From Bacteroidota bacterium (GTDB lineage Bacteria; Bacteroidota; Bacteroidia; Palsa-948): a stretch of DNA of 64,000 nt. Shown here in pieces: positions 8,075 to 42,118 of the stretch. Both the position numbers and the translations under genes were made by a program. The notes under the pieces are model-generated. The model saw only the letters and a program-made list of their open reading frames with translations, ran no database searches and was not told the origin of the DNA. Location: NCBI GenBank assembly GCA_023251675.1, contig JAHEYJ010000001.1, positions 1,671 to 65,670 of the forward strand. Reading direction: 5' to 3'. Position 1 is the stretch's first letter, and each line of letters opens with the position of its first letter.

Positions 8075-10042
8075 CTATTTGTTCTGAGCGCCGGCTGCAA
8101 TTTCTAATTCGTTAATTGTATTTTCTTCAACAGCAATTCCCTTTTCTTTCGCAGTGAGCAGATCCTGTAACGCTTCGGCATATTTACCCATCCCTTTATA
8201 AGCAAGCGAACGGTTGGTGTAAGCGCCGTAATTATCGGGTTTCAGTTCAAGGGATCTTGTAAAATCATTCACCGCTTCCTGGTATTTACCGCTCATGCTT
8301 AAAATAATTCCGCGGTTGTTGTACGCCTGTCCGTTATCCGAAGCAAACTCAATGGCTTTATTGATATCACTGAGCGCTTCCGGAAGATGATCGCTTTTTC
8401 CGTATGCTTCGGAACGGGCATAATAGCCTTCCCCGCTTTTGGGCTGCAGCTCAATGATCTTTGTAAAATCTTTTATCGCGTTTTCAAAATCATTTCTCTG
8501 AACATACATGGTGCCGCGGCTGAGGTAATTGGTATAATCATCGGGATGAAGTCGTATCTCTTCGGAGAAGGATCGGATGGCTTCATCGGTTTGCTTCAGG
8601 CGCTGGTGTACCAAACCTTTGTTGCGCCACGCTTTCGGATATTTTGGTTTCAGTTCTACCAATGAAATAAAATCTTTCAGCGCTTCTTCGTTACGGCTTG
8701 AATCCGTAAGAACAGCACCGCGGTTGGTATATAAAATGGCTGCTTTGTATCCGTTGTCAATGGCATCGGTATAAAGCCGAATGCTGTCGTGCCACACCTT
8801 TGTCCGCTGAAAGGTCAGGTAACAGAAAAACACCAGGTAAACAGCGGCAGCGGCAGTTGCAGTTTTATTTGTTATAAAAGGCGAAAAATAATACGCCGCA
8901 ATAAAAAATAATCCGATTGATGGAATGTATGTGTAGCGGTCGGCATACAAGGCATCACCGATGGGAAGGAGCTGAAGAACAAGAACAATGGTGATGAGAA
9001 AAAAGGCCGTTCCGAATAAGACCACTTTCGAATCACGAAAATATTTCCAAATGAGGAACGCAATAGCAAGCAGAACGGCCGGACTTATATAAACCCAGAC
9101 CGTATTGATCTTATCGTTGGTTTCCGGGTAAGGATAAAAGCAAGAAAGATTAATCGGAAGAATAATCTTGTGCAGATACGTCATCAAAGCATAGCAGGAA
9201 AAAAGGATCCGTTCGTAAAAAGGAAAATACTGGAACGTCTGCATGGCGCCGGCTTTCCCCTGGACTTTAATGGCAAGAATTCCGAAGGCAACGGCAAGGA
9301 CGAAGAAAGGGATTTTTTCCAAGATGGTTTTCTTTGTGAGCTTCCGGTTCAACAGAAAATCGACAGCAAAAAAAGTTACAGGAAGCACAACCGCCTGTGC
9401 TTTTGAAAGAAGCGCAAACAGAAAAAGTAAAAGAATCACTCCGACGCGGGCAAGGGACAGTGAACTTTTTTCTTCTTTCAGCGAAGGAGTAGAGATGTAA
9501 ACATACAGCCCCCATAAAAAGAAAAATCCATAGAGCACATCCTTTCGTTCCGCGATCCACACAACGGATTCCACGTGAAGCGGATGAATCCCGAACAACA
9601 AAGCGGTGAGAAATGCGGCCCACCCCCAACCCCTCCCCAAGGGAGGGGGGATTAATTTCTGCACGATCAAAAAAACCAGAAGGGTATTCAGTAAGTGCAA
9701 CAATAAATTTACAAGATGATAGCCGAAAGGATTTAGAGCAAAAAATTTATAATCCAGCATGTAGGAGAACATGGTAAGCGGCTGGTAGTTGCCTACAAAC
9801 TGTTCGGAGAAAATAGTTTTCAGGTTCTCGGCATTGATCGCTTTGATCACCGGATTTTCCAGTACGTACTGTGTATCGTCAAGGTTAACGAATTTGTTTT
9901 GAAGAGAAGGGAAGAAAACAAGAAAGGTAATTGCAAGAACAGCGGGAAGAAAATATTTTTCATATCCTGAAATAAATTCTATTTCAGGTTGGAGTTGTTT
10001 CGAAATGACTTTGGCTTTCTGCTTTGGCTTTGCCATGAGCAA
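8075..10042 (-). CDS. multi-pass membrane protein with C-terminal TPR repeats (TMTC/DUF1736-like)
   Basis: 655 aa. Many N-terminal TM helices. Motif ALLFGIHPLHVESVVWIAERKDVL typical of the DUF1736 loop. Tandem TPRs at the C-terminus. Contains an in-frame GC hairpin encoding PPPLGRGWGW. Confidence 0.7.
   Translation of the reverse strand: MLMAKPKQKAKVISKQLQPEIEFISGYEKYFLPAVLAITFLVFFPSLQNKFVNLDDTQYVLENPVIKAINAENLKTIFSEQFVGNYQPLTMFSYMLDYKFFALNPFGYHLVNLLLHLLNTLLVFLIVQKLIPPPLGRGWGWAAFLTALLFGIHPLHVESVVWIAERKDVLYGFFFLWGLYVYISTPSLKEEKSSLSLARVGVILLLFLFALLSKAQAVVLPVTFFAVDFLLNRKLTKKTILEKIPFFVLAVAFGILAIKVQGKAGAMQTFQYFPFYERILFSCYALMTYLHKIILPINLSCFYPYPETNDKINTVWVYISPAVLLAIAFLIWKYFRDSKVVLFGTAFFLITIVLVLQLLPIGDALYADRYTYIPSIGLFFIAAYYFSPFITNKTATAAAAVYLVFFCYLTFQRTKVWHDSIRLYTDAIDNGYKAAILYTNRGAVLTDSSRNEEALKDFISLVELKPKYPKAWRNKGLVHQRLKQTDEAIRSFSEEIRLHPDDYTNYLSRGTMYVQRNDFENAIKDFTKIIELQPKSGEGYYARSEAYGKSDHLPEALSDINKAIEFASDNGQAYNNRGIILSMSGKYQEAVNDFTRSLELKPDNYGAYTNRSLAYKGMGKYAEALQDLLTAKEKGIAVEENTINELEIAAGAQNK
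9632..9650. repeat. GC-rich perfect hairpin (CCCCTCCC-caa-GGGAGGGG) embedded in-frame in a CDS; encodes PLGRG
   Basis: 8-bp perfect stem seen directly. Same family as the hairpins at 27924 and 28327. Confidence 0.7.
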
Positions 10043-12370: not shown

Positions 12371-12462
12371 CTTTTATTTTTCTTAGTGCTTCTTAGTGTA
12401 CTGCGTGTCTTAGTGGTAAAAAATTTCACCACTAAGGCACTAAGGCCACTCAGTTACACTAA
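12371..12462. repeat. ~90-bp palindromic intergenic repeat of the TTAGTG family (copy 1)
   Basis: CTTAGTG…CTTAGTG…CTGCGTG…TAGTGGTAAAAAATTTCACCACTAAGGCACTAAG. A related copy lies at 52775-52865. Confidence 0.6.
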
Positions 12463-16909: not shown

Positions 16910-17956
16910 GTGAATCCTATTTCTGTATTTCCTATACGTACAAAAAAAGATTTTGAAAAGAAGGCTTTGGAAGTTTTCCATTTTCAGGCTGAAAAGAATC
17001 CGGTTTATAAAAAGTACATTGAACAGATCGGCGTGATCCCCGGGAAGGTAAAATCTCTTAACGGGATTCCATTTTTACCTATCGGGTTTTTCAAAACACA
17101 AGAAGTAGTAACTGAGGAGCAAGCAACAAGCAACAAGTCACAAGTCACAAGTCACAAGTTGCAAATCACAAGTCATAAGTCACAAGTGTTTTTGAGCAGC
17201 GGCACTACCGGAACGGAGCGAAGCCGGCATACGGTGACGGATGTTTCGCTTTACGAAAAAAGTTTCCGGAAATGTTTTGAAAGATTTTATGGTAATCCAA
17301 AACAATATGCTTTCCTGGTGTTGCTTCCTTCTTATTACGAGAACAAAAATTCATCGTTGATCTATATGATGATGGACCTGATGAAAAGAAGCGGAAATCA
17401 ATTCAGTTCTTTTTATAATTCCAAAGATGAAACACTGATCCAGGTCCTTATGACACTTTTGAAGAAGAAACAAAAAGTGATCTTGTTTGGAGTTTCTTTT
17501 GCACTGCTGGACCTGGCATTCCCTCCGCTCCATGATAAACAAGCATCCGGGCTGATGTCCGGGCTTACGGTCATTGAGACCGGTGGCATGAAAGGGCGTA
17601 AGGAAGAAATAACAAGAGAAGAACTTCACAAGATCCTTTGCGGGAAATTCAAAGTAAAAAAAATTCATTCTGAATACGGAATGACCGAACTGCTTTCGCA
17701 GGCCTGGTCAAAAGGCGATGGACTTTTCAACTGTCCGCCCTGGATGAAAATCTTTATTCGTGATGTCAATGATCCTTTTCAGATTTTATCACATAGAAAA
17801 ACCGGGGCACTGAACATCATTGACCTGGCCAATATACATTCCTGCTCGTTCATTGCCACACAGGATCTTGGGAAAGTTTACCGGAACGGTTCGTTCGAGG
17901 TATTGGGGCGAATTGATAACAGCGACCTGAGGGGATGCAATTTGCTGGCGGTATAA
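16910..17956 (+). CDS. LuxE-like acyl-protein synthetase / acyl transferase family protein containing an in-frame heptanucleotide repeat
   Basis: 348 aa. SSGTTG adenylate-forming motif. Domain resemblance to PF04443. A 7-aa x3 repeat (V/I)TSHK(S/L)Q lies just upstream of SSGTTG. Confidence 0.6.
   Translation: MNPISVFPIRTKKDFEKKALEVFHFQAEKNPVYKKYIEQIGVIPGKVKSLNGIPFLPIGFFKTQEVVTEEQATSNKSQVTSHKLQITSHKSQVFLSSGTTGTERSRHTVTDVSLYEKSFRKCFERFYGNPKQYAFLVLLPSYYENKNSSLIYMMMDLMKRSGNQFSSFYNSKDETLIQVLMTLLKKKQKVILFGVSFALLDLAFPPLHDKQASGLMSGLTVIETGGMKGRKEEITREELHKILCGKFKVKKIHSEYGMTELLSQAWSKGDGLFNCPPWMKIFIRDVNDPFQILSHRKTGALNIIDLANIHSCSFIATQDLGKVYRNGSFEVLGRIDNSDLRGCNLLAV
17121..17188. repeat. ~9 tandem imperfect copies of heptamer AAGTCAC inside the LuxE-like CDS
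   Basis: Units seen directly: aagcaac aagcaac aagtcac aagtcac aagtcac aagttgc aaatcac aagtcat aagtcac. Confidence 0.8.
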
Positions 17957-19315
17957 TTATTTCAAACCGTACTTCGTTTTATATTTTTCATATAAAACTT
18001 TCTGTTCGTTGGAAAGGTCCAGTTTTTTCCCGCGGATGAATGCGTATTCCACGTTGTTGGTTTTCATATCGAGCGCATCTCCTGTAGAAATAAACAGCGT
18101 GGCGTCCTTTCCTTCTTCCAGCGAACCCACACGGGAATCAATGCCTAAAATTTTTGCCGTGTGGAGTGTGATCGAAGCCAGCGCTTCTTCTGTTGTGAGG
18201 CCGTAAGCGACAGCCGTGCCGGCCTGGAAGCAAAGATTCCGCGTGTTGGTCTGTTCCATGTCGCCGGAATTTTCAAGGCAGAAAAGTACGCCGGCTTTTT
18301 GAAGAAGAAAAGGAAGTTTATAGGGAAGGTCAACATCGTCTTCCGTTCGGTTCGGCAGATCGTGTAAGCGGTTCACCATCACGGCAATGTTATTTTCCTT
18401 GAGCAGGTCGGCCACCATCCAGGAATCCGTTCCTCCCACGATCACCATTTTTTTCACACCTTGTGATTTACTGAAAGCTACAGCATCTTCGATTTCCTTT
18501 ACATAATTCACATGAACAAAAAGAGTTTTGGAAGAATTGAAAAGTCCTTTCATGGCTTCGAGGCGGAGGTTTTTTTCCAAAGGACTTGTTTCACTATAAG
18601 CTTTTGCATCGGAAAAGAATTTTTTCAGTTCTGTTTTTGATTTTTCATATTCTTCCGATTTTTTCATCGGCGGAAATTCATTCGCATCTTCCGATTTTCC
18701 CCACTCGCGCCTGAACATGCGCGGCCAGTTCATGTGAATGCCGTCGTCTGTTTTCAGGGCCATGTCTTCCCAGTTCCAGCCATCAAGTTCCATTACCGAG
18801 GAAGTTCCGGAAATGGTTCCGCCTCTCGGTGTCACTTGCGCGATGAGCACCCCGTTCGTGCGAACGGTGGGAGGGATTTTAGAATCACTATTGAAGGCAA
18901 TCACGCTTCGTATGTGGGGATTGTACGCACCGGTCTCTGATTCATCGCGGGTGGCGCGTACGGATTCCACTTCCTGCAAACCCAACGTGGAATTAGGGGC
19001 AATGAATCCGGGATAGACGTGTTTGCCTGCAATGTTAATGATGGTATCGTAAGCCCCCTGCTGTAATTTGATGATTGTTGCATCCGCAACCAGAACTATT
19101 TTTCCATTCTTAAATCCAACAGCGGAATTCTCGATCACTGTTCCGTTGCCGATGTGGGCAATGCCGTTCATCAGCAAAATGCTTTTGGCCTGCCCAGGAG
19201 CGGGAATGGGATTTTGAGAAAATGAGGAATTCAGAATGCAGAATGCAGAATGCAACAGCAAACAATATCGAATCGCCTTGAACTTTGAACTAGAAACCAT
19301 GAACCAGAAACGCAT
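17957..19315 (-). CDS. secreted amidohydrolase-family metal-dependent hydrolase
   Basis: 452 aa. Signal peptide. Amidohydrolase fold motifs (…HVNYV…, …HDLP…). Confidence 0.75.
   Translation of the reverse strand: MRFWFMVSSSKFKAIRYCLLLHSAFCILNSSFSQNPIPAPGQAKSILLMNGIAHIGNGTVIENSAVGFKNGKIVLVADATIIKLQQGAYDTIINIAGKHVYPGFIAPNSTLGLQEVESVRATRDESETGAYNPHIRSVIAFNSDSKIPPTVRTNGVLIAQVTPRGGTISGTSSVMELDGWNWEDMALKTDDGIHMNWPRMFRREWGKSEDANEFPPMKKSEEYEKSKTELKKFFSDAKAYSETSPLEKNLRLEAMKGLFNSSKTLFVHVNYVKEIEDAVAFSKSQGVKKMVIVGGTDSWMVADLLKENNIAVMVNRLHDLPNRTEDDVDLPYKLPFLLQKAGVLFCLENSGDMEQTNTRNLCFQAGTAVAYGLTTEEALASITLHTAKILGIDSRVGSLEEGKDATLFISTGDALDMKTNNVEYAFIRGKKLDLSNEQKVLYEKYKTKYGLK
19233..19253. repeat. (AGAATGC)x3, the reverse complement of (GCATTCT)x3, in the signal-peptide codons of the amidohydrolase gene
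   Basis: Direct observation. Encodes LHSAFCILNS. The same repeat occurs at 38375. Confidence 0.8.
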
Positions 19316-19316
19316 G

Positions 19317-20273
19317 TTACTTATTGAGCCACTGGTAATACGGCTTTTTGGAATCTGGCGCAGGCGTATCGGATTTTTTCTTAGCGCTCATTCTCCATCC
19401 GATCGTGATCTCGTGCGTTCCGCCGGACTCGCCCATGCCTCCCGCCGAAGAAAATTCATAGGAATAATTGAAAATAAAATTATTGTAAGGAATTCCGCCT
19501 ATACCAAAGGCCATCGCTGTTTTTTTGTAAATGGGAGAGACCCAGATCCTGTTCTTATAGATAACAGGAACGGCAACTTCATAGTAAGTGTCAAAAGTGG
19601 TTTGTTTCACAAGATCGATTTTTGCAACGGGGTCGATTGTCCAGTCGTTGTTGAAGGAATATTTATACCCTAAATTGATCACTTCCTGGGTATTATTCAT
19701 ATAGACATTCTTTCCTTCATGATTCTTTATTTTGTTAGTGAGAACGCGGGGAGCGCCGATTCCAGCACTCAATCCCTTGAAACGATACAGGATTCCGAAT
19801 CCGGCATCAAAAACCATATCGGTCACATCCGCGTTATTGGCAGCAACCGGATCGTTCATTTGACCGGCAGCGCCGGCAATGTTAACATGGCTTTCCAGCA
19901 GCCCCAATCCCAGTCCGAAACTTAATGTATGTCCTCCCGAAAATTTTGCGTGGTAGGCATAACTTGCCATTGCAGAGAGGTTTTCAAATATCCCGGCGTT
20001 CTGGCTGGAAATGCTTCCGCCCAGCCCCATTTTTTTACAGATCAAACCATTTGCAGAAATCGTTTTGGTTTCAGGTGCACCCGGAATATTCATCCATTCG
20101 TTCCGATAGGTGCCGAATATCTCAAAACTTTCTCCGGTTCCTGCATAAGCAGGAGAAAGAGAGAATTTGTTGATGGTATATTGATTGGATAAAGGAAGCT
20201 GTTGTGCGAACAAGCTAACGGCTAATAGCCATAAGCTGCCAGCTAAAAAAATATTTTTATTTTGCATCGTCAA
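19317..20273 (-). CDS. T9SS membrane protein PorP/SprF family, paired with the upstream type-B CTD protein
   Basis: 318 aa. N-terminal LAVSLFAQQLPLSNQYTINKFSLSPAYAG. Lies immediately after a CTD-B gene on the same strand, the classic pairing. Confidence 0.8.
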   Translation of the reverse strand: MTMQNKNIFLAGSLWLLAVSLFAQQLPLSNQYTINKFSLSPAYAGTGESFEIFGTYRNEWMNIPGAPETKTISANGLICKKMGLGGSISSQNAGIFENLSAMASYAYHAKFSGGHTLSFGLGLGLLESHVNIAGAAGQMNDPVAANNADVTDMVFDAGFGILYRFKGLSAGIGAPRVLTNKIKNHEGKNVYMNNTQEVINLGYKYSFNNDWTIDPVAKIDLVKQTTFDTYYEVAVPVIYKNRIWVSPIYKKTAMAFGIGGIPYNNFIFNYSYEFSSAGGMGESGGTHEITIGWRMSAKKKSDTPAPDSKKPYYQWLNK

Positions 20274-37735: not shown

Positions 37736-38308
37736 ATGCACGCAGCACAGAACTACATCTATATTTTATTTGCGGTCCTGTATATTATATACAGTCTCGT
37801 CAAGGCAGTAAAAAAGAATGCGAAACACCCGCCTGTTTCTTCTTCTAATCCTCCGGCGCAGAAAAAAGATGAATACAAACCGGTGCAGCCTCCTGTTTCT
37901 TCCCCCGCTCCTGATCCCGGAGAGGATATCAGGAAAATGCTGGAACAGGTATTGGGCAGAAACCAGGAAAGTAAAGCCCCGGAAAAAAAAACAGTTGCCT
38001 CCAAACAACATACAGGTCAGCTGAAAACACCTCCCAAATTGACACGGCAGCAGTGGGCAACCAAAGAGACTCCGACTTCCCGCGACGATGAAAAAAAATC
38101 GTTCCATAAAGACAGAAAGGAGAAAGCGGACCTGGCACACAAAACGGAGATGCATCATCGATCCGAAAGGACCTTTCTTTCCGGCGAACAGGTTCTTCCC
38201 AAAAAAGTTTTTTCAGAAATGGCCATTGCTGACGAAGAGACCGCTGTTGATTTTGATTTCCGGCAGGCGGTGATTTATTCTGAAATTCTGAAACGGCCTC
38301 AGTACTGA
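37736..38308 (+). CDS. hypothetical Pro-rich membrane-anchored protein
   Basis: 190 aa. One N-terminal TM. Low-complexity P/S/K-rich region. Confidence 0.4.
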   Translation: MHAAQNYIYILFAVLYIIYSLVKAVKKNAKHPPVSSSNPPAQKKDEYKPVQPPVSSPAPDPGEDIRKMLEQVLGRNQESKAPEKKTVASKQHTGQLKTPPKLTRQQWATKETPTSRDDEKKSFHKDRKEKADLAHKTEMHHRSERTFLSGEQVLPKKVFSEMAIADEETAVDFDFRQAVIYSEILKRPQY

Positions 38309-38337
38309 AATGGCGGAGAAACTTTTTAACTTCGCTT

Positions 38338-41300
38338 ATGCTTTCCAAACGATTTGTATTTCTTTTTGGCATTTGCATTCTGCATTCTGCATTCTGCATT
38401 CTGAATTGTTTTTCCCAATCCTATAATTTCAAGAACTATTCTGTCGGGCAGGGGCTTCCGTTTGTGCAGGTCTATGCCATTTACCAGGACAGCAAAGGTA
38501 ATTTGTGGACGGGCGGTTACGGCGGGCTCAGCCGGTTCGATGGAAAAACGTTCACCAACTATACGCCTAAGAATGGTTTGGCTGATCACTGGGTAACCTC
38601 CATTGCTGAAGATGCACAGGGAAATATATGGATCGGAACCATCAGCGGCCTTACCCGGTATGACGGAAAAACCTTTTCAACGTTTACCAAATCGCATGGG
38701 CTGGCAGGCGATTACATCAACTCACTGACACGGGATAAAAACGGAAACCTTTGGATCGCAACCACTGAAGGCATTACCATTTACGATGGAAAAACGTTTT
38801 CTTCCATCAAAAAGAAAAACGGATTAGCCGCCGATAATGTTTCCCTGATCTATGCCGATAAGAATGGGAATATCTGGATGAATACAGCAAGCGGAGTCGG
38901 CAAGATCGTTTTCACAAATAAAAACCCGCAGGACCGTTCGTTTGATAATTACACCATCATGAACAGTGTGTATGATTCTTCCATCACTTCCATCACTGAA
39001 GATGGAATTGGAAATATCTGGTTCGGGACAAACAGCGGCGCTGTAAAATACGACGGGGTGAATTTCAAAACCTATACTTCCAAAAACGGTTTGCTGGATA
39101 ATTCCATCCAGGCCGTGATGAAAAGCGAAAATAATAATGAGATCTGGATCGGAACCGGCAAAGGGCTGAATAAGATCTCTGAAAACGGTGTGGTGGAATC
39201 GTACCGGGTGAGCGAAACACAGAACGGAAATAAGATCGGTAAACTTTATAAAGATACGGAGGGAAACCTATGGCTCGGAACGTCCAACGGACTGTATCGT
39301 TTCCGCGATCCTTCGTTTGCAACCTATTCGGATAAAGACGGACTGCTGAACCCCTTCGTGTTCCCGATCTTCCGCGATCATAAAAAAAATCTTTGGGTGG
39401 GTACGCTGGAGAATGGATTTTACAAATACGATAACAGGGAATTTAAAAGCTTTACAGAAAAAGACGGGCTCATCGGAACAGAAATGTATTCGGGCATGGA
39501 AGATAAGGATGGATTTATTTTAATGGGAACCAATAAAGGATTATCGGTTTATAACGGGAATGGTTTCAAAAATTTTCACGGAAAAAAAGACGGGCTTCGC
39601 GGCGATTCGGTTACCGCCGTTATCCAGGACCGGAAAGGAAGGATCTGGCTGGGCGGAAATAAAGGCGGAACGATCTGGAACGGCAGCCGCTTCCGCACGT
39701 TTGATCTTCAATCGGATGCAGGCAACTTTGACGTATGGTATTTATTTGAAGACAGCAAAGGATCTATCTGGATGGGAACTTATCTGGGCGGCATTTTCCG
39801 GTACAACCCGAAGAACGATATGGGATCCACGGAAAAGGCCATTGAAGACATGACCAAAAAACTTAACCTGAAAAGTAAAACGTATTTTTCGATTTGCGAG
39901 GACAGGGATGGAATCATATACATGGGAAGTTTTGACGGCCTGTATATTTACAATCCATCAACAGAAAAAGTTTCTACTATAACAGAAAAAAACGGATTGA
40001 GCTGCGATCTGATTTATGTCATGGCCTTTGATTCAGCCTACGAGAACTTATATATCGGTACGAACCAGGGCGTAAACAAATTCAATGCAACGGAATTTAA
40101 CCGTACCGGAAAAATCATCCTGAAACAATACGGCATTGAAGAAGGGTTCAGCAGCCTGGAAACCAACTCGAACGGGGTCTGGCGTGATATGGACGGAACA
40201 TTCTGGTTCGGCACGGTGAACGGGCTCATTCATTTCAATCCCTATCTCGTTCCGCACAATTCTACAGAAGCAAAGGTCAGTATTAAAAATATCCGGATCT
40301 TTTATAACGATACCGTTCTTTCCGATAACGCGGAGCTTCCTTATTACCTCAATAATATTTCCTTTGAATACATCGGCATCTGTCTCACGAATCCGGAAAA
40401 AGTACGGTACAAGTATATGCTTCAGGGACTGGATAAGATGTGGTCGCCGGAAACACAGGAAACCAGCGTCCACTTTCCCAATCTTCAGCCGGGCAAATAT
40501 GTTTTTAAAATAATGGCCTGCAACAACGAAGGCGTATGGAGCAAAGAACCGGTGACTTTTTCATTTACGATCACACCGCCGGTCTGGAAGACCTGGTGGT
40601 TCAGGATCTCCATGAGCATTTCTCTTATTATCCTGATTGGGATTTTTATTCGGGTGCGGGTAGATGCAATACGAAAGAAGGAGGCGGAAAAACTTTCGCA
40701 TGAGATCGAGCTGGCCAATAACGAGCTCAAAGCACTTCGGGCGCAGATGGATCCTCATTTCATTTTCAATTCACTTACTTCCATCCAGAGTTTCATTATG
40801 GCAAAAGACGAAGAGTCGGCGCTTCGCTACCTGAACAAATTTGCCAAGCTCATGCGCATGATTCTTTCCAACAGTGAAAAATCATCCATCACCCTTCGTG
40901 AAGAACTGGACTCCCTGAAACTTTACCTTGAACTGGAAAGGCTTAGATGGGACAACAAGTTCGATTATTTCGTGGAGATCGATGACAGCGTTGAAATGGA
41001 TGATCACAAGATCCCGACGATGCTGATTCAGCCTTATGTAGAGAATGCCGTTCTGCACGGAGTGGTCCCTAAAACCAACGGCAAGGGAAGGATCGATATT
41101 CGCCTGTCTCAAACGGATAAACATATAATATGTACGATCCTGGACAATGGAATCGGCAGAAAAAGATCGCAGGAGTTGCGCACCGATTCCAACAAGTCGC
41201 TTCATGAATCTATGGGAATGAAAATTACCAGTGAGCGGCTCGAAGTATTGAATAAAATGCATCGGTCAGAACTAAGCGCCAAAATCATGGACCTGTATGA

Positions 41301-41352
41301 TGAAAAAGGAGAAGCCACGGGAACAAAAGTGGAAATATTCATTCCGATTTAA
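38338..41352 (+). CDS. LytS-type sensor histidine kinase with periplasmic two-component-regulator propeller repeats and Y_Y_Y domain
   Basis: 1004 aa. Propeller repeats, TM, His_kinase (…DPHFIFNSL…) and HATPase_c (NAVLHG…). The signal peptide is encoded by (GCATTCT)x4. Confidence 0.85.
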   Translation: MLSKRFVFLFGICILHSAFCILNCFSQSYNFKNYSVGQGLPFVQVYAIYQDSKGNLWTGGYGGLSRFDGKTFTNYTPKNGLADHWVTSIAEDAQGNIWIGTISGLTRYDGKTFSTFTKSHGLAGDYINSLTRDKNGNLWIATTEGITIYDGKTFSSIKKKNGLAADNVSLIYADKNGNIWMNTASGVGKIVFTNKNPQDRSFDNYTIMNSVYDSSITSITEDGIGNIWFGTNSGAVKYDGVNFKTYTSKNGLLDNSIQAVMKSENNNEIWIGTGKGLNKISENGVVESYRVSETQNGNKIGKLYKDTEGNLWLGTSNGLYRFRDPSFATYSDKDGLLNPFVFPIFRDHKKNLWVGTLENGFYKYDNREFKSFTEKDGLIGTEMYSGMEDKDGFILMGTNKGLSVYNGNGFKNFHGKKDGLRGDSVTAVIQDRKGRIWLGGNKGGTIWNGSRFRTFDLQSDAGNFDVWYLFEDSKGSIWMGTYLGGIFRYNPKNDMGSTEKAIEDMTKKLNLKSKTYFSICEDRDGIIYMGSFDGLYIYNPSTEKVSTITEKNGLSCDLIYVMAFDSAYENLYIGTNQGVNKFNATEFNRTGKIILKQYGIEEGFSSLETNSNGVWRDMDGTFWFGTVNGLIHFNPYLVPHNSTEAKVSIKNIRIFYNDTVLSDNAELPYYLNNISFEYIGICLTNPEKVRYKYMLQGLDKMWSPETQETSVHFPNLQPGKYVFKIMACNNEGVWSKEPVTFSFTITPPVWKTWWFRISMSISLIILIGIFIRVRVDAIRKKEAEKLSHEIELANNELKALRAQMDPHFIFNSLTSIQSFIMAKDEESALRYLNKFAKLMRMILSNSEKSSITLREELDSLKLYLELERLRWDNKFDYFVEIDDSVEMDDHKIPTMLIQPYVENAVLHGVVPKTNGKGRIDIRLSQTDKHIICTILDNGIGRKRSQELRTDSNKSLHESMGMKITSERLEVLNKMHRSELSAKIMDLYDEKGEATGTKVEIFIPI
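38375..38402. repeat. (GCATTCT)x4 perfect heptanucleotide tandem repeat in the signal-peptide codons of the sensor kinase
   Basis: Direct observation. Encodes ILHSAFCILHSAFCILN. Confidence 0.85.
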
Positions 41353-41374: not shown

Positions 41375-42118
41375 ATGATAAAGACCGTAATCATCGAAGA
41401 TGAAAAAAAAAGCAGCGATGCGCTTTTGCACCTTCTTCAGAAAAACTGTCCGGATATTAGCGTGGCCGGTGTTGCTGCCAGTGTGAAAGAAGGGATCGAA
41501 ACGGCGAAGAACCTGAGGCCCGAACTTATTTTCCTGGATGTGATGATGCCCGATGGAAGTGGATTCGATGTGCTGGAGAAATTATCCGATCTGAAATTCG
41601 ACCTGATCTTTACCACTGCATCTGAAAAATTTGCCGTGAAGGCGATCAAATACAGTGCGCTGGACTATCTCCTTAAGCCGATCGATGCCGAAGAACTCAA
41701 GCTGGCCGTTAAAAAAGTAGCGGACCGGAAAAGCAACACGTCTTCAGAAAAAAATCTGGCATCGCTTCTCGAGAACATTAAAAAGAGCGATGAGCAATAC
41801 AGCAAGATCACACTGCCAACCGGCAACGCCTATGAAGTGGTGCAGGTGAAAGACATTATCCGCTGCGAAGCCAACGATAACTACACGAACATTTACATGG
41901 TGGGCGGAAAAAAATTCCTCGTTTCCGGAACGTTGAAACATTATGAAGAACTTTTGCCGGAAAAGGATTTCGTCCGGGTACACCATTCCCACCTTATCAA
42001 TATGATCCACATGCTGCGCTTTCTTAAGGAAGACGGCGGTTATGCGGTAATGAGCGACGGAAGCAAAGTGGAGATCTCCCGCCGGAAAAAGGAAGATTTC
42101 CTGAAGCGCCTGAAATAA
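41375..42118 (+). CDS. LytTR-family response regulator
   Basis: 247 aa. Receiver domain (…FLDVMMPDGSGFD…) plus C-terminal LytTR DNA-binding domain. Confidence 0.9.
   Translation: MIKTVIIEDEKKSSDALLHLLQKNCPDISVAGVAASVKEGIETAKNLRPELIFLDVMMPDGSGFDVLEKLSDLKFDLIFTTASEKFAVKAIKYSALDYLLKPIDAEELKLAVKKVADRKSNTSSEKNLASLLENIKKSDEQYSKITLPTGNAYEVVQVKDIIRCEANDNYTNIYMVGGKKFLVSGTLKHYEELLPEKDFVRVHHSHLINMIHMLRFLKEDGGYAVMSDGSKVEISRRKKEDFLKRLK

Follow-up and report, generated by a model that had tools for sequence, protein, structure and literature searches.

Heptanucleotide repeat arrays encoding part of the signal peptides of two unrelated exported proteins in a Bacteroidota bacterium

Microsatellites with a non-triplet unit are normally purged from coding DNA, and the known exceptions are the contingency genes of host-adapted pathogens. 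We analyzed a 64,000-nucleotide stretch of a metagenome-assembled contig (ENA ERZ27297709, 325 kb) from an uncultured Bacteroidota bacterium (GenBank assembly GCA_023251675.1, contig JAHEYJ010000001.1, positions 1,671 to 65,670; hereafter the window), in which tandem copies of the heptamer GCATTCT lie in the signal-peptide codons of a LytS-type sensor histidine kinase gene and of an amidohydrolase gene. Heptanucleotides are the most abundant class of long simple sequence repeats (SSRs) among prokaryotes; a proposed cause is polymerase slippage with a 7-nt footprint (Mrazek, 2007, as summarized in PMC4679880). Dispersed heptamer families include STRR in cyanobacteria and TAACTGA in Beggiatoaceae, cyanobacteria and a few Bacteroidetes (MacGregor, 2015; PMC4679880). 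Both are described as mainly intergenic; TAACTGA arrays are found just upstream of start codons, where a regulatory role has been proposed for those of Beggiatoaceae (PMC4679880). Repeats are also described within the 5′ coding regions of exported-protein genes: the Neisseria opa genes carry a CTCTT pentamer in their leader codons that varies experimentally at ~1e-3 per generation (PMC3960869), Helicobacter oipA carries a CT repeat (as outlined in PMC10564699), and Gardnerella nanH3 carries a homopolymer (bioRxiv 10.1101/2020.09.16.300947).

The arrays described here resemble long SSRs (LSSRs), STRR and TAACTGA in being built of tandem 7-nt units, in the dominance of period 7, and in having lineage-specific units that recur at several loci per genome; inverted array pairs occur here too (locus L122, 293-362; locus L180, 17343-17800). 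Unlike STRR and TAACTGA, they are mostly translated in frame as the core of a signal peptide, and they are conserved in register while the sequence of the unit turns over. Nor are they mostly intergenic, since the arrays outside leaders lie inside other open reading frames (ORFs), with few between genes. As in opa, a non-triplet repeat that can be read in every frame occupies hydrophobic leader codons, the same unit is found in several exported-protein genes, and a change in unit number shifts the frame. By contrast with opa, there are only 3-4 units, no OFF allele was seen in 15 arrays, the host genes are unrelated instead of forming one paralogous family, and the bacterium is an environmental, free-living one; opa tracts are longer than those in the window, and ON and OFF opa alleles coexist in isolates. 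What the arrays here share with oipA and nanH3 is a repeat placed in the 5′ or signal part of an exported-protein gene, where slippage causes a frameshift; the oipA and nanH3 repeats, however, have mono- or dinucleotide units with known strain variation, and are neither heptamers nor in register across species. What is new here is the residence of heptanucleotide SSRs in signal-peptide codons, and their in-register conservation with unit turnover; the kind of SSR itself is known. An environmental lineage keeps 7-nt arrays in frame in its leader peptides over long evolutionary times while the unit turns over, and signal-peptide cores can be seen built and rebuilt from microsatellite DNA. This provides a natural system for asking why slippage favors 7 nt, and flags concrete candidate loci for possible phase variation in free-living Bacteroidota.

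The first tract is an error-free (GCATTCT)4 at 38375-38402 on the plus strand, in the leader codons of a gene for a 1004-aa sensor histidine kinase (38338..41352, plus strand) that combines a periplasmic Reg_prop/Y_Y_Y domain with a His_kinase domain of the LytS type (PF06580). The perfect period-7 run extends over 38374-38403, and Tandem Repeats Finder reports an imperfect array of 5.7 copies at 38369-38407. At its full imperfect extent, the array of the hydrophobic region (h-region) covers 38364-38413 and consists of GGCATTT, four GCATTCT units and GAATTGT, coding for ICILHSAFCIL. The signal-peptide codons (38338..38418, plus strand) specify MLSKR (n-region), FVFLFGICILHSAFCIL (h-region) and NCFS followed by Q; the peptide reads MLSKRFVFLFGICILHSAFCILNCFSQ, followed by SYNF.

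The second tract is a perfect (GCATTCT)3 at 19233-19253, with the minus strand as coding strand, in the h-region of a 452-aa exported amidohydrolase (Amidohydro_1, PF01979; 17957..19315, minus strand). Here the perfect period-7 run is 19232-19254, the imperfect array is 19220-19264, and the h-region array codes for LLHSAFCIL. The leader codons (19214-19315) end in NSSFS followed by QNPIP, giving the layout MRFWFMVSSSKFKAIR (n), YCLLLHSAFCIL (h) and NSSFS-Q (c), and the peptide reads MRFWFMVSSSKFKAIRYCLLLHSAFCILNSSFSQ, followed by NPIP. A second, degenerate heptamer array in the same leader (CGTTTCT GGTTCAT GGTTTCT AGTTCAA AGTTCAA; 19277..19312, minus strand; 19286-19316 according to Tandem Repeats Finder) codes for its n-region, RFWFMVSSSKFK.

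Both tracts thus have the sequence and position reported in an earlier note on this DNA, and ORFs, domains and leader layout bear out its placement of them in the signal-peptide-coding segments of two exported proteins unrelated to each other. Two details of that description needed correction. The repeat was said to come immediately after the start codon; it begins 37 nt (12 codons) downstream of the ATG in the kinase gene and 62 nt (20 codons) downstream in the amidohydrolase gene, in both cases in the hydrophobic core of the leader. The kinase peptide was given with one 7-residue period too many, the correct sequence being ...GICILHSAFCILNCFSQ. The same note dismissed the antisense ORFs starting with MQNAEC (37929..38399, minus strand; 19236..19673, plus strand) as artefacts of the repeat, which is reasonable, since they overlap conserved genes on the opposite strand.

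The n/h/c layout of both leaders is of the Sec type, as judged by inspection and a Kyte-Doolittle window. In Bacteroidota, cleavage is expected before Gln, and the signal-peptide junction is kept in the orthologues of both the kinase and the amidohydrolase. A 7-nt unit is translated through all three frames, so that GCATTCT yields AFCILHS, GCCTTCT yields AFCLLPS and GGCTTCT yields GFWLLAS, all of which are usable as hydrophobic cores. In L122, the third unit of a TCATTAG array is TCATTCG, at precisely the position where an unaltered unit would put a TAG in frame. Only T-rich, stop-free units survive on the coding strand, and hence both arrays of the window are in the "sense" orientation despite lying on opposite genomic strands.

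The closest homologues of the kinase are 60-75% identical and come from metagenome-assembled genomes of Bacteroidota/Bacteroidia. These close homologues have leaders that are also 7-residue periodic, with differing sequences (e.g. FIANCLLPIANCLSQ, IVYCLLSTVYCHSQ and FIPHTLYLIPSFSQ); homologues at 45% identity have ordinary leaders. The DNA of the orthologues confirmed heptamer arrays at the equivalent leader position. When aligned from the conserved TTTTCCCAA (FSQ) junction, the kinase arrays are in register, GGCATTT (GCATTCT)4 GAATTGT in the window corresponding to TCATTGT (ACAATGT)3 ACATTGT in L121 and to GCCTTGC ACCTTGC GCCTTGT GCCTTGT in L128. The ATG and the CFSQSYNFKNYS junction of the kinase are kept in 10 orthologous loci, and leader length in the array-bearing orthologues is mostly 26-28 aa.

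Alignment of the amidohydrolase leader showed that both of its arrays are orthologous across five genomes. The n-region array, a degenerate (GTTYMWR)5 in the window, is (AAGTTAC)3 in L180, (AAAATTC)3 in L182 and AGGTTTC in L130; the h-region array, which in this register is (TCTGCAT)3 in the window, is (TCTGCAA)4-5 in L180, TTTGCCT in L182 and TTTTMAT in L121. The h-region unit has thus been rewritten per genome (GCATTCT, GCAATCT, GCCTTTT), the window and L180 differing by a single base. The amidohydrolase gene directly follows a PorP/SprF gene, within a cluster of the type IX secretion system (T9SS)/gliding type, and the PorP/SprF leader has an array of its own: (GCCTTCT)3-4 in L180 and L182, (GGCTTCT)3 in L121, and in the window a relic, visible as decayed 7-nt periodicity at 20209..20243 on the minus strand (GCTGGCA GCTTATG GCTATTA GCCGTTA GCTTGTT).

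Units are uniform inside an array and different between species. Members of the same 90% protein cluster, with mature parts at least 90% identical, can have unrelated leaders (P0124 vs P0252; P0025 vs P0249), and the leaders of L180 and L182 cannot be aligned by blastn, whereas the flanking genes are ~90% identical. In this pair the leader forms a hypervariable island between 90%-identical flanks (L180, 9988-10118; L182, 1010-1129). The units of the kinase, amidohydrolase and PorP/SprF leaders share the form GCNTTNT: their mean rotation-minimised distance is 2.68, compared with 3.27 ± 0.11 for letter-shuffled units, and a value as low as 2.68 was seen in 0 of 2000 shuffles. This likeness may reflect an old common origin or a shared coding constraint. 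We conclude that the arrays in these three leaders are old, and that their species-specific units are the product of concerted evolution. Because each of the two window tracts has an in-register orthologous array at its own locus, they were not recently copied from one another.

Chance is excluded for both GCATTCT tracts. A 14-mer of two units, with at most one mismatch, matches five times in the window, always at the kinase and amidohydrolase loci, against an expectation of 0.03; this count was reached in 0 of 100 dinucleotide-preserving shuffles. A 21-mer with at most three mismatches likewise matches at these loci only within the 64 kb (expected 0.00). Among periods above 6, only 7 gives perfect runs in the window, and at a strict threshold there are three period-7 arrays, compared with 0-1 at other periods and none in shuffles. 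Using a criterion of 16 matches in 21 positions, we found seven period-7 arrays in 23 kb of L121 (GCA_016195025.1), with none at other periods from 4 to 12, and six in 23 kb of L122, with 0-2 at other periods. In the pooled DNA of the lineage (177,155 nt, nine loci), there are 30 period-7 arrays, compared with 0-5 for each other period of 4-12. Many of the lineage arrays lie 3-50 nt downstream of the ATG in exported-protein genes (kinase, amidohydrolase, PorP/SprF and WD40).

The third heptamer array of the window lies elsewhere, at 17114..17189 on the plus strand, where ~2.6 copies of CAAGCAA and ~8 of ACAAGTC are read in frame as a surface-loop insertion (EEQATSNKSQVTSHKLQITSHKSQV) of a cytoplasmic LuxE-like acyl-protein synthetase. 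The LuxE-like loop holds in-frame arrays in four species (window 17114-17189; L130 8432-8471; L180 12651-12692; L182 3145-3183), with the coding-strand units AGTCACA, CAATCCC, GGTCATC and ACAGGGG; the window protein is ~12 residues longer at this loop.

From these observations, we think it probable that the tracts are tolerated heptanucleotide SSRs of the LSSR/STRR kind that are homogenized by slippage and reside in signal-peptide codons. Slippage or misaligned repair with a strong preference for 7 nt would create the arrays and keep homogenizing them. The arrays would then persist wherever the protein tolerates them, mainly in the hydrophobic core of Sec signal peptides, and also in the variable loop of LuxE and in some intergenic DNA, with each lineage spreading its own unit variant through an old array; the window genome would simply happen to have GCATTCT at two loci of one GCNTTNT family. 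Single-unit slips would produce frameshifted null alleles as a by-product, with the in-frame state fixed wherever sampled. Since concerted evolution implies recurrent slippage, such null alleles must arise at some rate, and phase variation at these leaders is possible.

Several points weigh against tolerated, slippage-homogenized repeats as a full account. It gives no mechanism for the 7-nt preference. Each single-unit step is a frameshift, so that homogenization requires three-unit steps, intra-array conversion or transient null alleles, and purifying selection by itself does not sit easily with concerted evolution of a non-triplet repeat within an ORF. Tolerance alone also leaves unexplained the long persistence of arrays at the same three leaders and the identical unit in two leaders of one genome. 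Finally, the leader location of the arrays, which speaks for this account, is overstated by its statistic: 12 of 21 arrays lie in the initial 120 nt of ORFs that are 150 aa or longer, segments making up 7.4% of the DNA (binomial 4e-9), but the figure is inflated because the loci were fetched via the kinase and amidohydrolase genes; when these two genes are removed, ~3 of ~11 arrays are N-terminal. Leader arrays in bystander genes, which were not used for fetching loci, are those of PorP/SprF in L121, L180 and L182 and of WD40 in L121; another, in a Por_Secre_tail protein of L122, was not scored as N-terminal in this census.

A different explanation is that the tracts are adaptive contingency loci, kept for the ON/OFF switching that slipped-strand mispairing would bring to the kinase, the amidohydrolase and further exported proteins. 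The geometry permits this, since gain or loss of one unit breaks either ORF: with unit number changed in silico, only n = 1, 4 or 7 leaves the kinase whole, and for the amidohydrolase only n = 0, 3 or 6 does so; all other numbers bring a stop codon within 12-77 codons. The presence of a non-triplet unit in leader codons, in several exported or surface-related genes of one genome, is consistent with switching, and so is the fact that arrays have been kept and re-homogenized at matching sites in different species, implying that slippage continues; the leader repeats of Neisseria opa, which switch at ~1e-3 per generation, set a precedent (PMC3960869). The state of the arrays argues the other way. 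All 15 leader arrays checked at the DNA level, from different genomes (five kinase, five amidohydrolase, three PorP, one WD40 and one Por_Secre_tail), are in frame, an outcome with a probability of ~7e-8 if the three frames were equally likely, and no OFF allele was found among them; the kinase is in frame from the conserved ATG at 10 of 10 loci. The earlier note had called the arrangement a textbook ON/OFF configuration. A one-unit change does frameshift either gene, as this requires; "textbook" is an overstatement for tracts of only 3-4 perfect units that are uniformly in frame.

The candidate OFF alleles proved to be mis-called starts. For P0009 (which starts MYNVHCFSQ) and P0003, the DNA is in frame from the conserved ATG, and the same is true of those whose DNA was fetched among ten amidohydrolase calls of ~404 aa (403-416 aa, starting MNG or MGG). 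Public gene calls begin inside or after the arrays, at an ATG made by the repeat or at the next Met (P0009 in L121 at 10001, the true ATG being at 9950; P0170, P0150 and similar, in L130 at 6482, compared with 6344), and as a result signal peptides are cut off in databases (977 vs 994 aa; 404 vs ~450 aa). The practical consequence is that gene callers misplace starts at such arrays. Close relatives vary by substitution at constant length rather than by unit number: within the 90% clusters there are substitutions and a single 3-aa indel, with unit number unchanged. The only strains assembled twice gave pairs that are 100% identical (L001 vs the window; L181 vs L180); these may derive from the same reads and carry no information on copy number. 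Decayed arrays in L125, L127, L129, L130 and the window PorP, and an array in the loop of LuxE, a cytoplasmic housekeeping-type enzyme, also run counter to maintenance for switching. We therefore regard contingency loci as a doubtful explanation, which, if true, would be a contingency-locus system outside host-adapted pathogens. Its broadest form, in which heptamer SSRs in the leaders of the kinase, the amidohydrolase, PorP/SprF, WD40 and T9SS cargo are actively maintained as genome-wide reversible frameshift switches for the exported proteome, and concerted evolution is the footprint of constant switching, seems to us somewhat more doubtful still.

The arrays might instead have spread recently as a cassette, with a preformed (GCATTCT)n block, or a whole leader, copied between genes by gene conversion or by a small mobile repeat. 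Unit, orientation and reading frame are the same in the two window tracts, and each array closes with ...GCATTCTGAATT. Units recur within single genomes, GCATTCT at two loci in 64 kb and TTTTTAA at two loci in L121, where the amidohydrolase and WD40 leaders have it in common with 18-nt identity; other genomes have many dispersed copies of one unit (five in 6.9 kb in L032; five in L148). These similarities are countered by in-register orthologues only 1-3 substitutions away (amidohydrolase GCAATCT in L180; kinase arrays of the xCATTGT type in L121 and L128) and by the last unit of the kinase array itself, which is still GAATTGT. The shared AAT T that follows the array is the conserved c-region Asn codon of both protein families, and the flanks have no other similarity, no terminal repeats and no target duplications. 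A recent cassette is accordingly unlikely. The suggestion that the repeats are a dispersed family co-opted as leader peptides survives in part: GCNTTNT arrays do occupy the kinase, amidohydrolase and PorP/SprF leaders lineage-wide, and TTTTTAA occupies two leaders of L121, but the in-register orthologous arrays, with units 1-3 substitutions away, are at odds with a recent common mobile source.

It is very improbable that the heptamers are a cis-acting mRNA or DNA signal, that is, putative regulator-binding sites at the 5′ end of exported-protein messages, for although arrays are found at a consistent 3-50 nt past the start codon and heptamer arrays adjoining start codons have a precedent in TAACTGA of Beggiatoaceae (PMC4679880), an Rfam scan of the window matched no family at the repeat arrays (the sole match being a tRNA gene at 62289-62373, minus strand), and no single sequence-specific binder fits units that differ between orthologues and between genes of one genome (ACAATGT, TTTTTAA and GGCTTCT in L121).

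In a scan of one genome per species, (GCATTCT)3 was present at at least 119 loci in many phyla, its hosts including Verrucomicrobiota, Acidobacteriota, Planctomycetota, Clostridia, Bacteroidales, Chloroflexota, cyanobacteria and others. Many of these loci are hairpins of the form (AGAATGC)n-loop-(GCATTCT)n, often accompanied by variant units that differ by one substitution. In other phyla, (GCATTCT)n is repeated per genome, with up to five arrays in 6.9 kb, typically as intergenic hairpins; multi-copy genomes are L032 and L096 (Chthoniobacteraceae JTS-RE83), L075, L061 and L114 (Gemmataceae SMAG_U11228), L098 and L148. We rejected the idea of a special cosmopolitan heptamer. In viral contigs, two composition-matched control heptamers were found at 9 and 14 loci, compared with 24 for GCATTCT, which is thus favored at most ~twofold; with matched controls nearly as common, its wide occurrence reflects the general abundance of heptanucleotides. 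Crude ORF mapping of the GCATTCT loci was blurred by spurious ORFs in GC-rich genomes. Searching proteins with a synthetic (AFCILHS)6 peptide brought up only hypothetical ORFs, 28-74 aa long and from other phyla, and no long translated GCATTCT leaders; a metagenome scan with a degenerate SQSYNFKNYS pattern returned six loci only.

The kinase gene is followed by that of its partner, a LytTR response regulator (41375..42118). Upstream, between the stop codon of a gene for a 190-aa protein and the kinase ATG, there is a conserved 7-bp hairpin (GGCGGAG ... CTTCGCT; 38312-38336) that ends 3 nt before the ATG and is also present in L121 (~9924-9948) and L128 (~1510-1534). One of its pairs changes from G-U to A-U, and no compensatory changes were seen; the hairpin may serve as a terminator or as a structure affecting translation. 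An ATG at 38310, in frame at n = 0, 3 or 6, was considered as an alternative kinase start and rejected, as in the orthologues it is part of this conserved hairpin rather than a conserved in-phase start.

Leader codons in the same genes also hold a repeat of a second type, a GC-rich palindrome (CTCCCCTTTGGGGAG), whose translation reads ...SPLGRQRG... or ...LGEGLGV.... We observed it in L132 (~2540-2680), in P0141, P0149, P0160, P0166 and P0171, and in the kinases P0013, P0016 and L126, which suggests that small palindromic elements also land in signal-peptide DNA. Of the inverted heptamer pairs mentioned above, that of L122 (GGAGTYC / GAACTCC-like, 293-362) lies in the called C-terminal part of a Y_Y_Y/SpoIIE gene, and a third, related array is found at 46-77 of the same locus. 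In L180, inverted arrays (GATAAGC / GCTTATC; 17343-17377 and 17768-17800) surround a gene for a 129-aa protein of the bAvd / 23S-rRNA-IVP type that is inserted between sdhA and sdhB; the sdhA-sdhB position of the window has no bAvd-type gene, just a short inverted repeat at 12380-12446.

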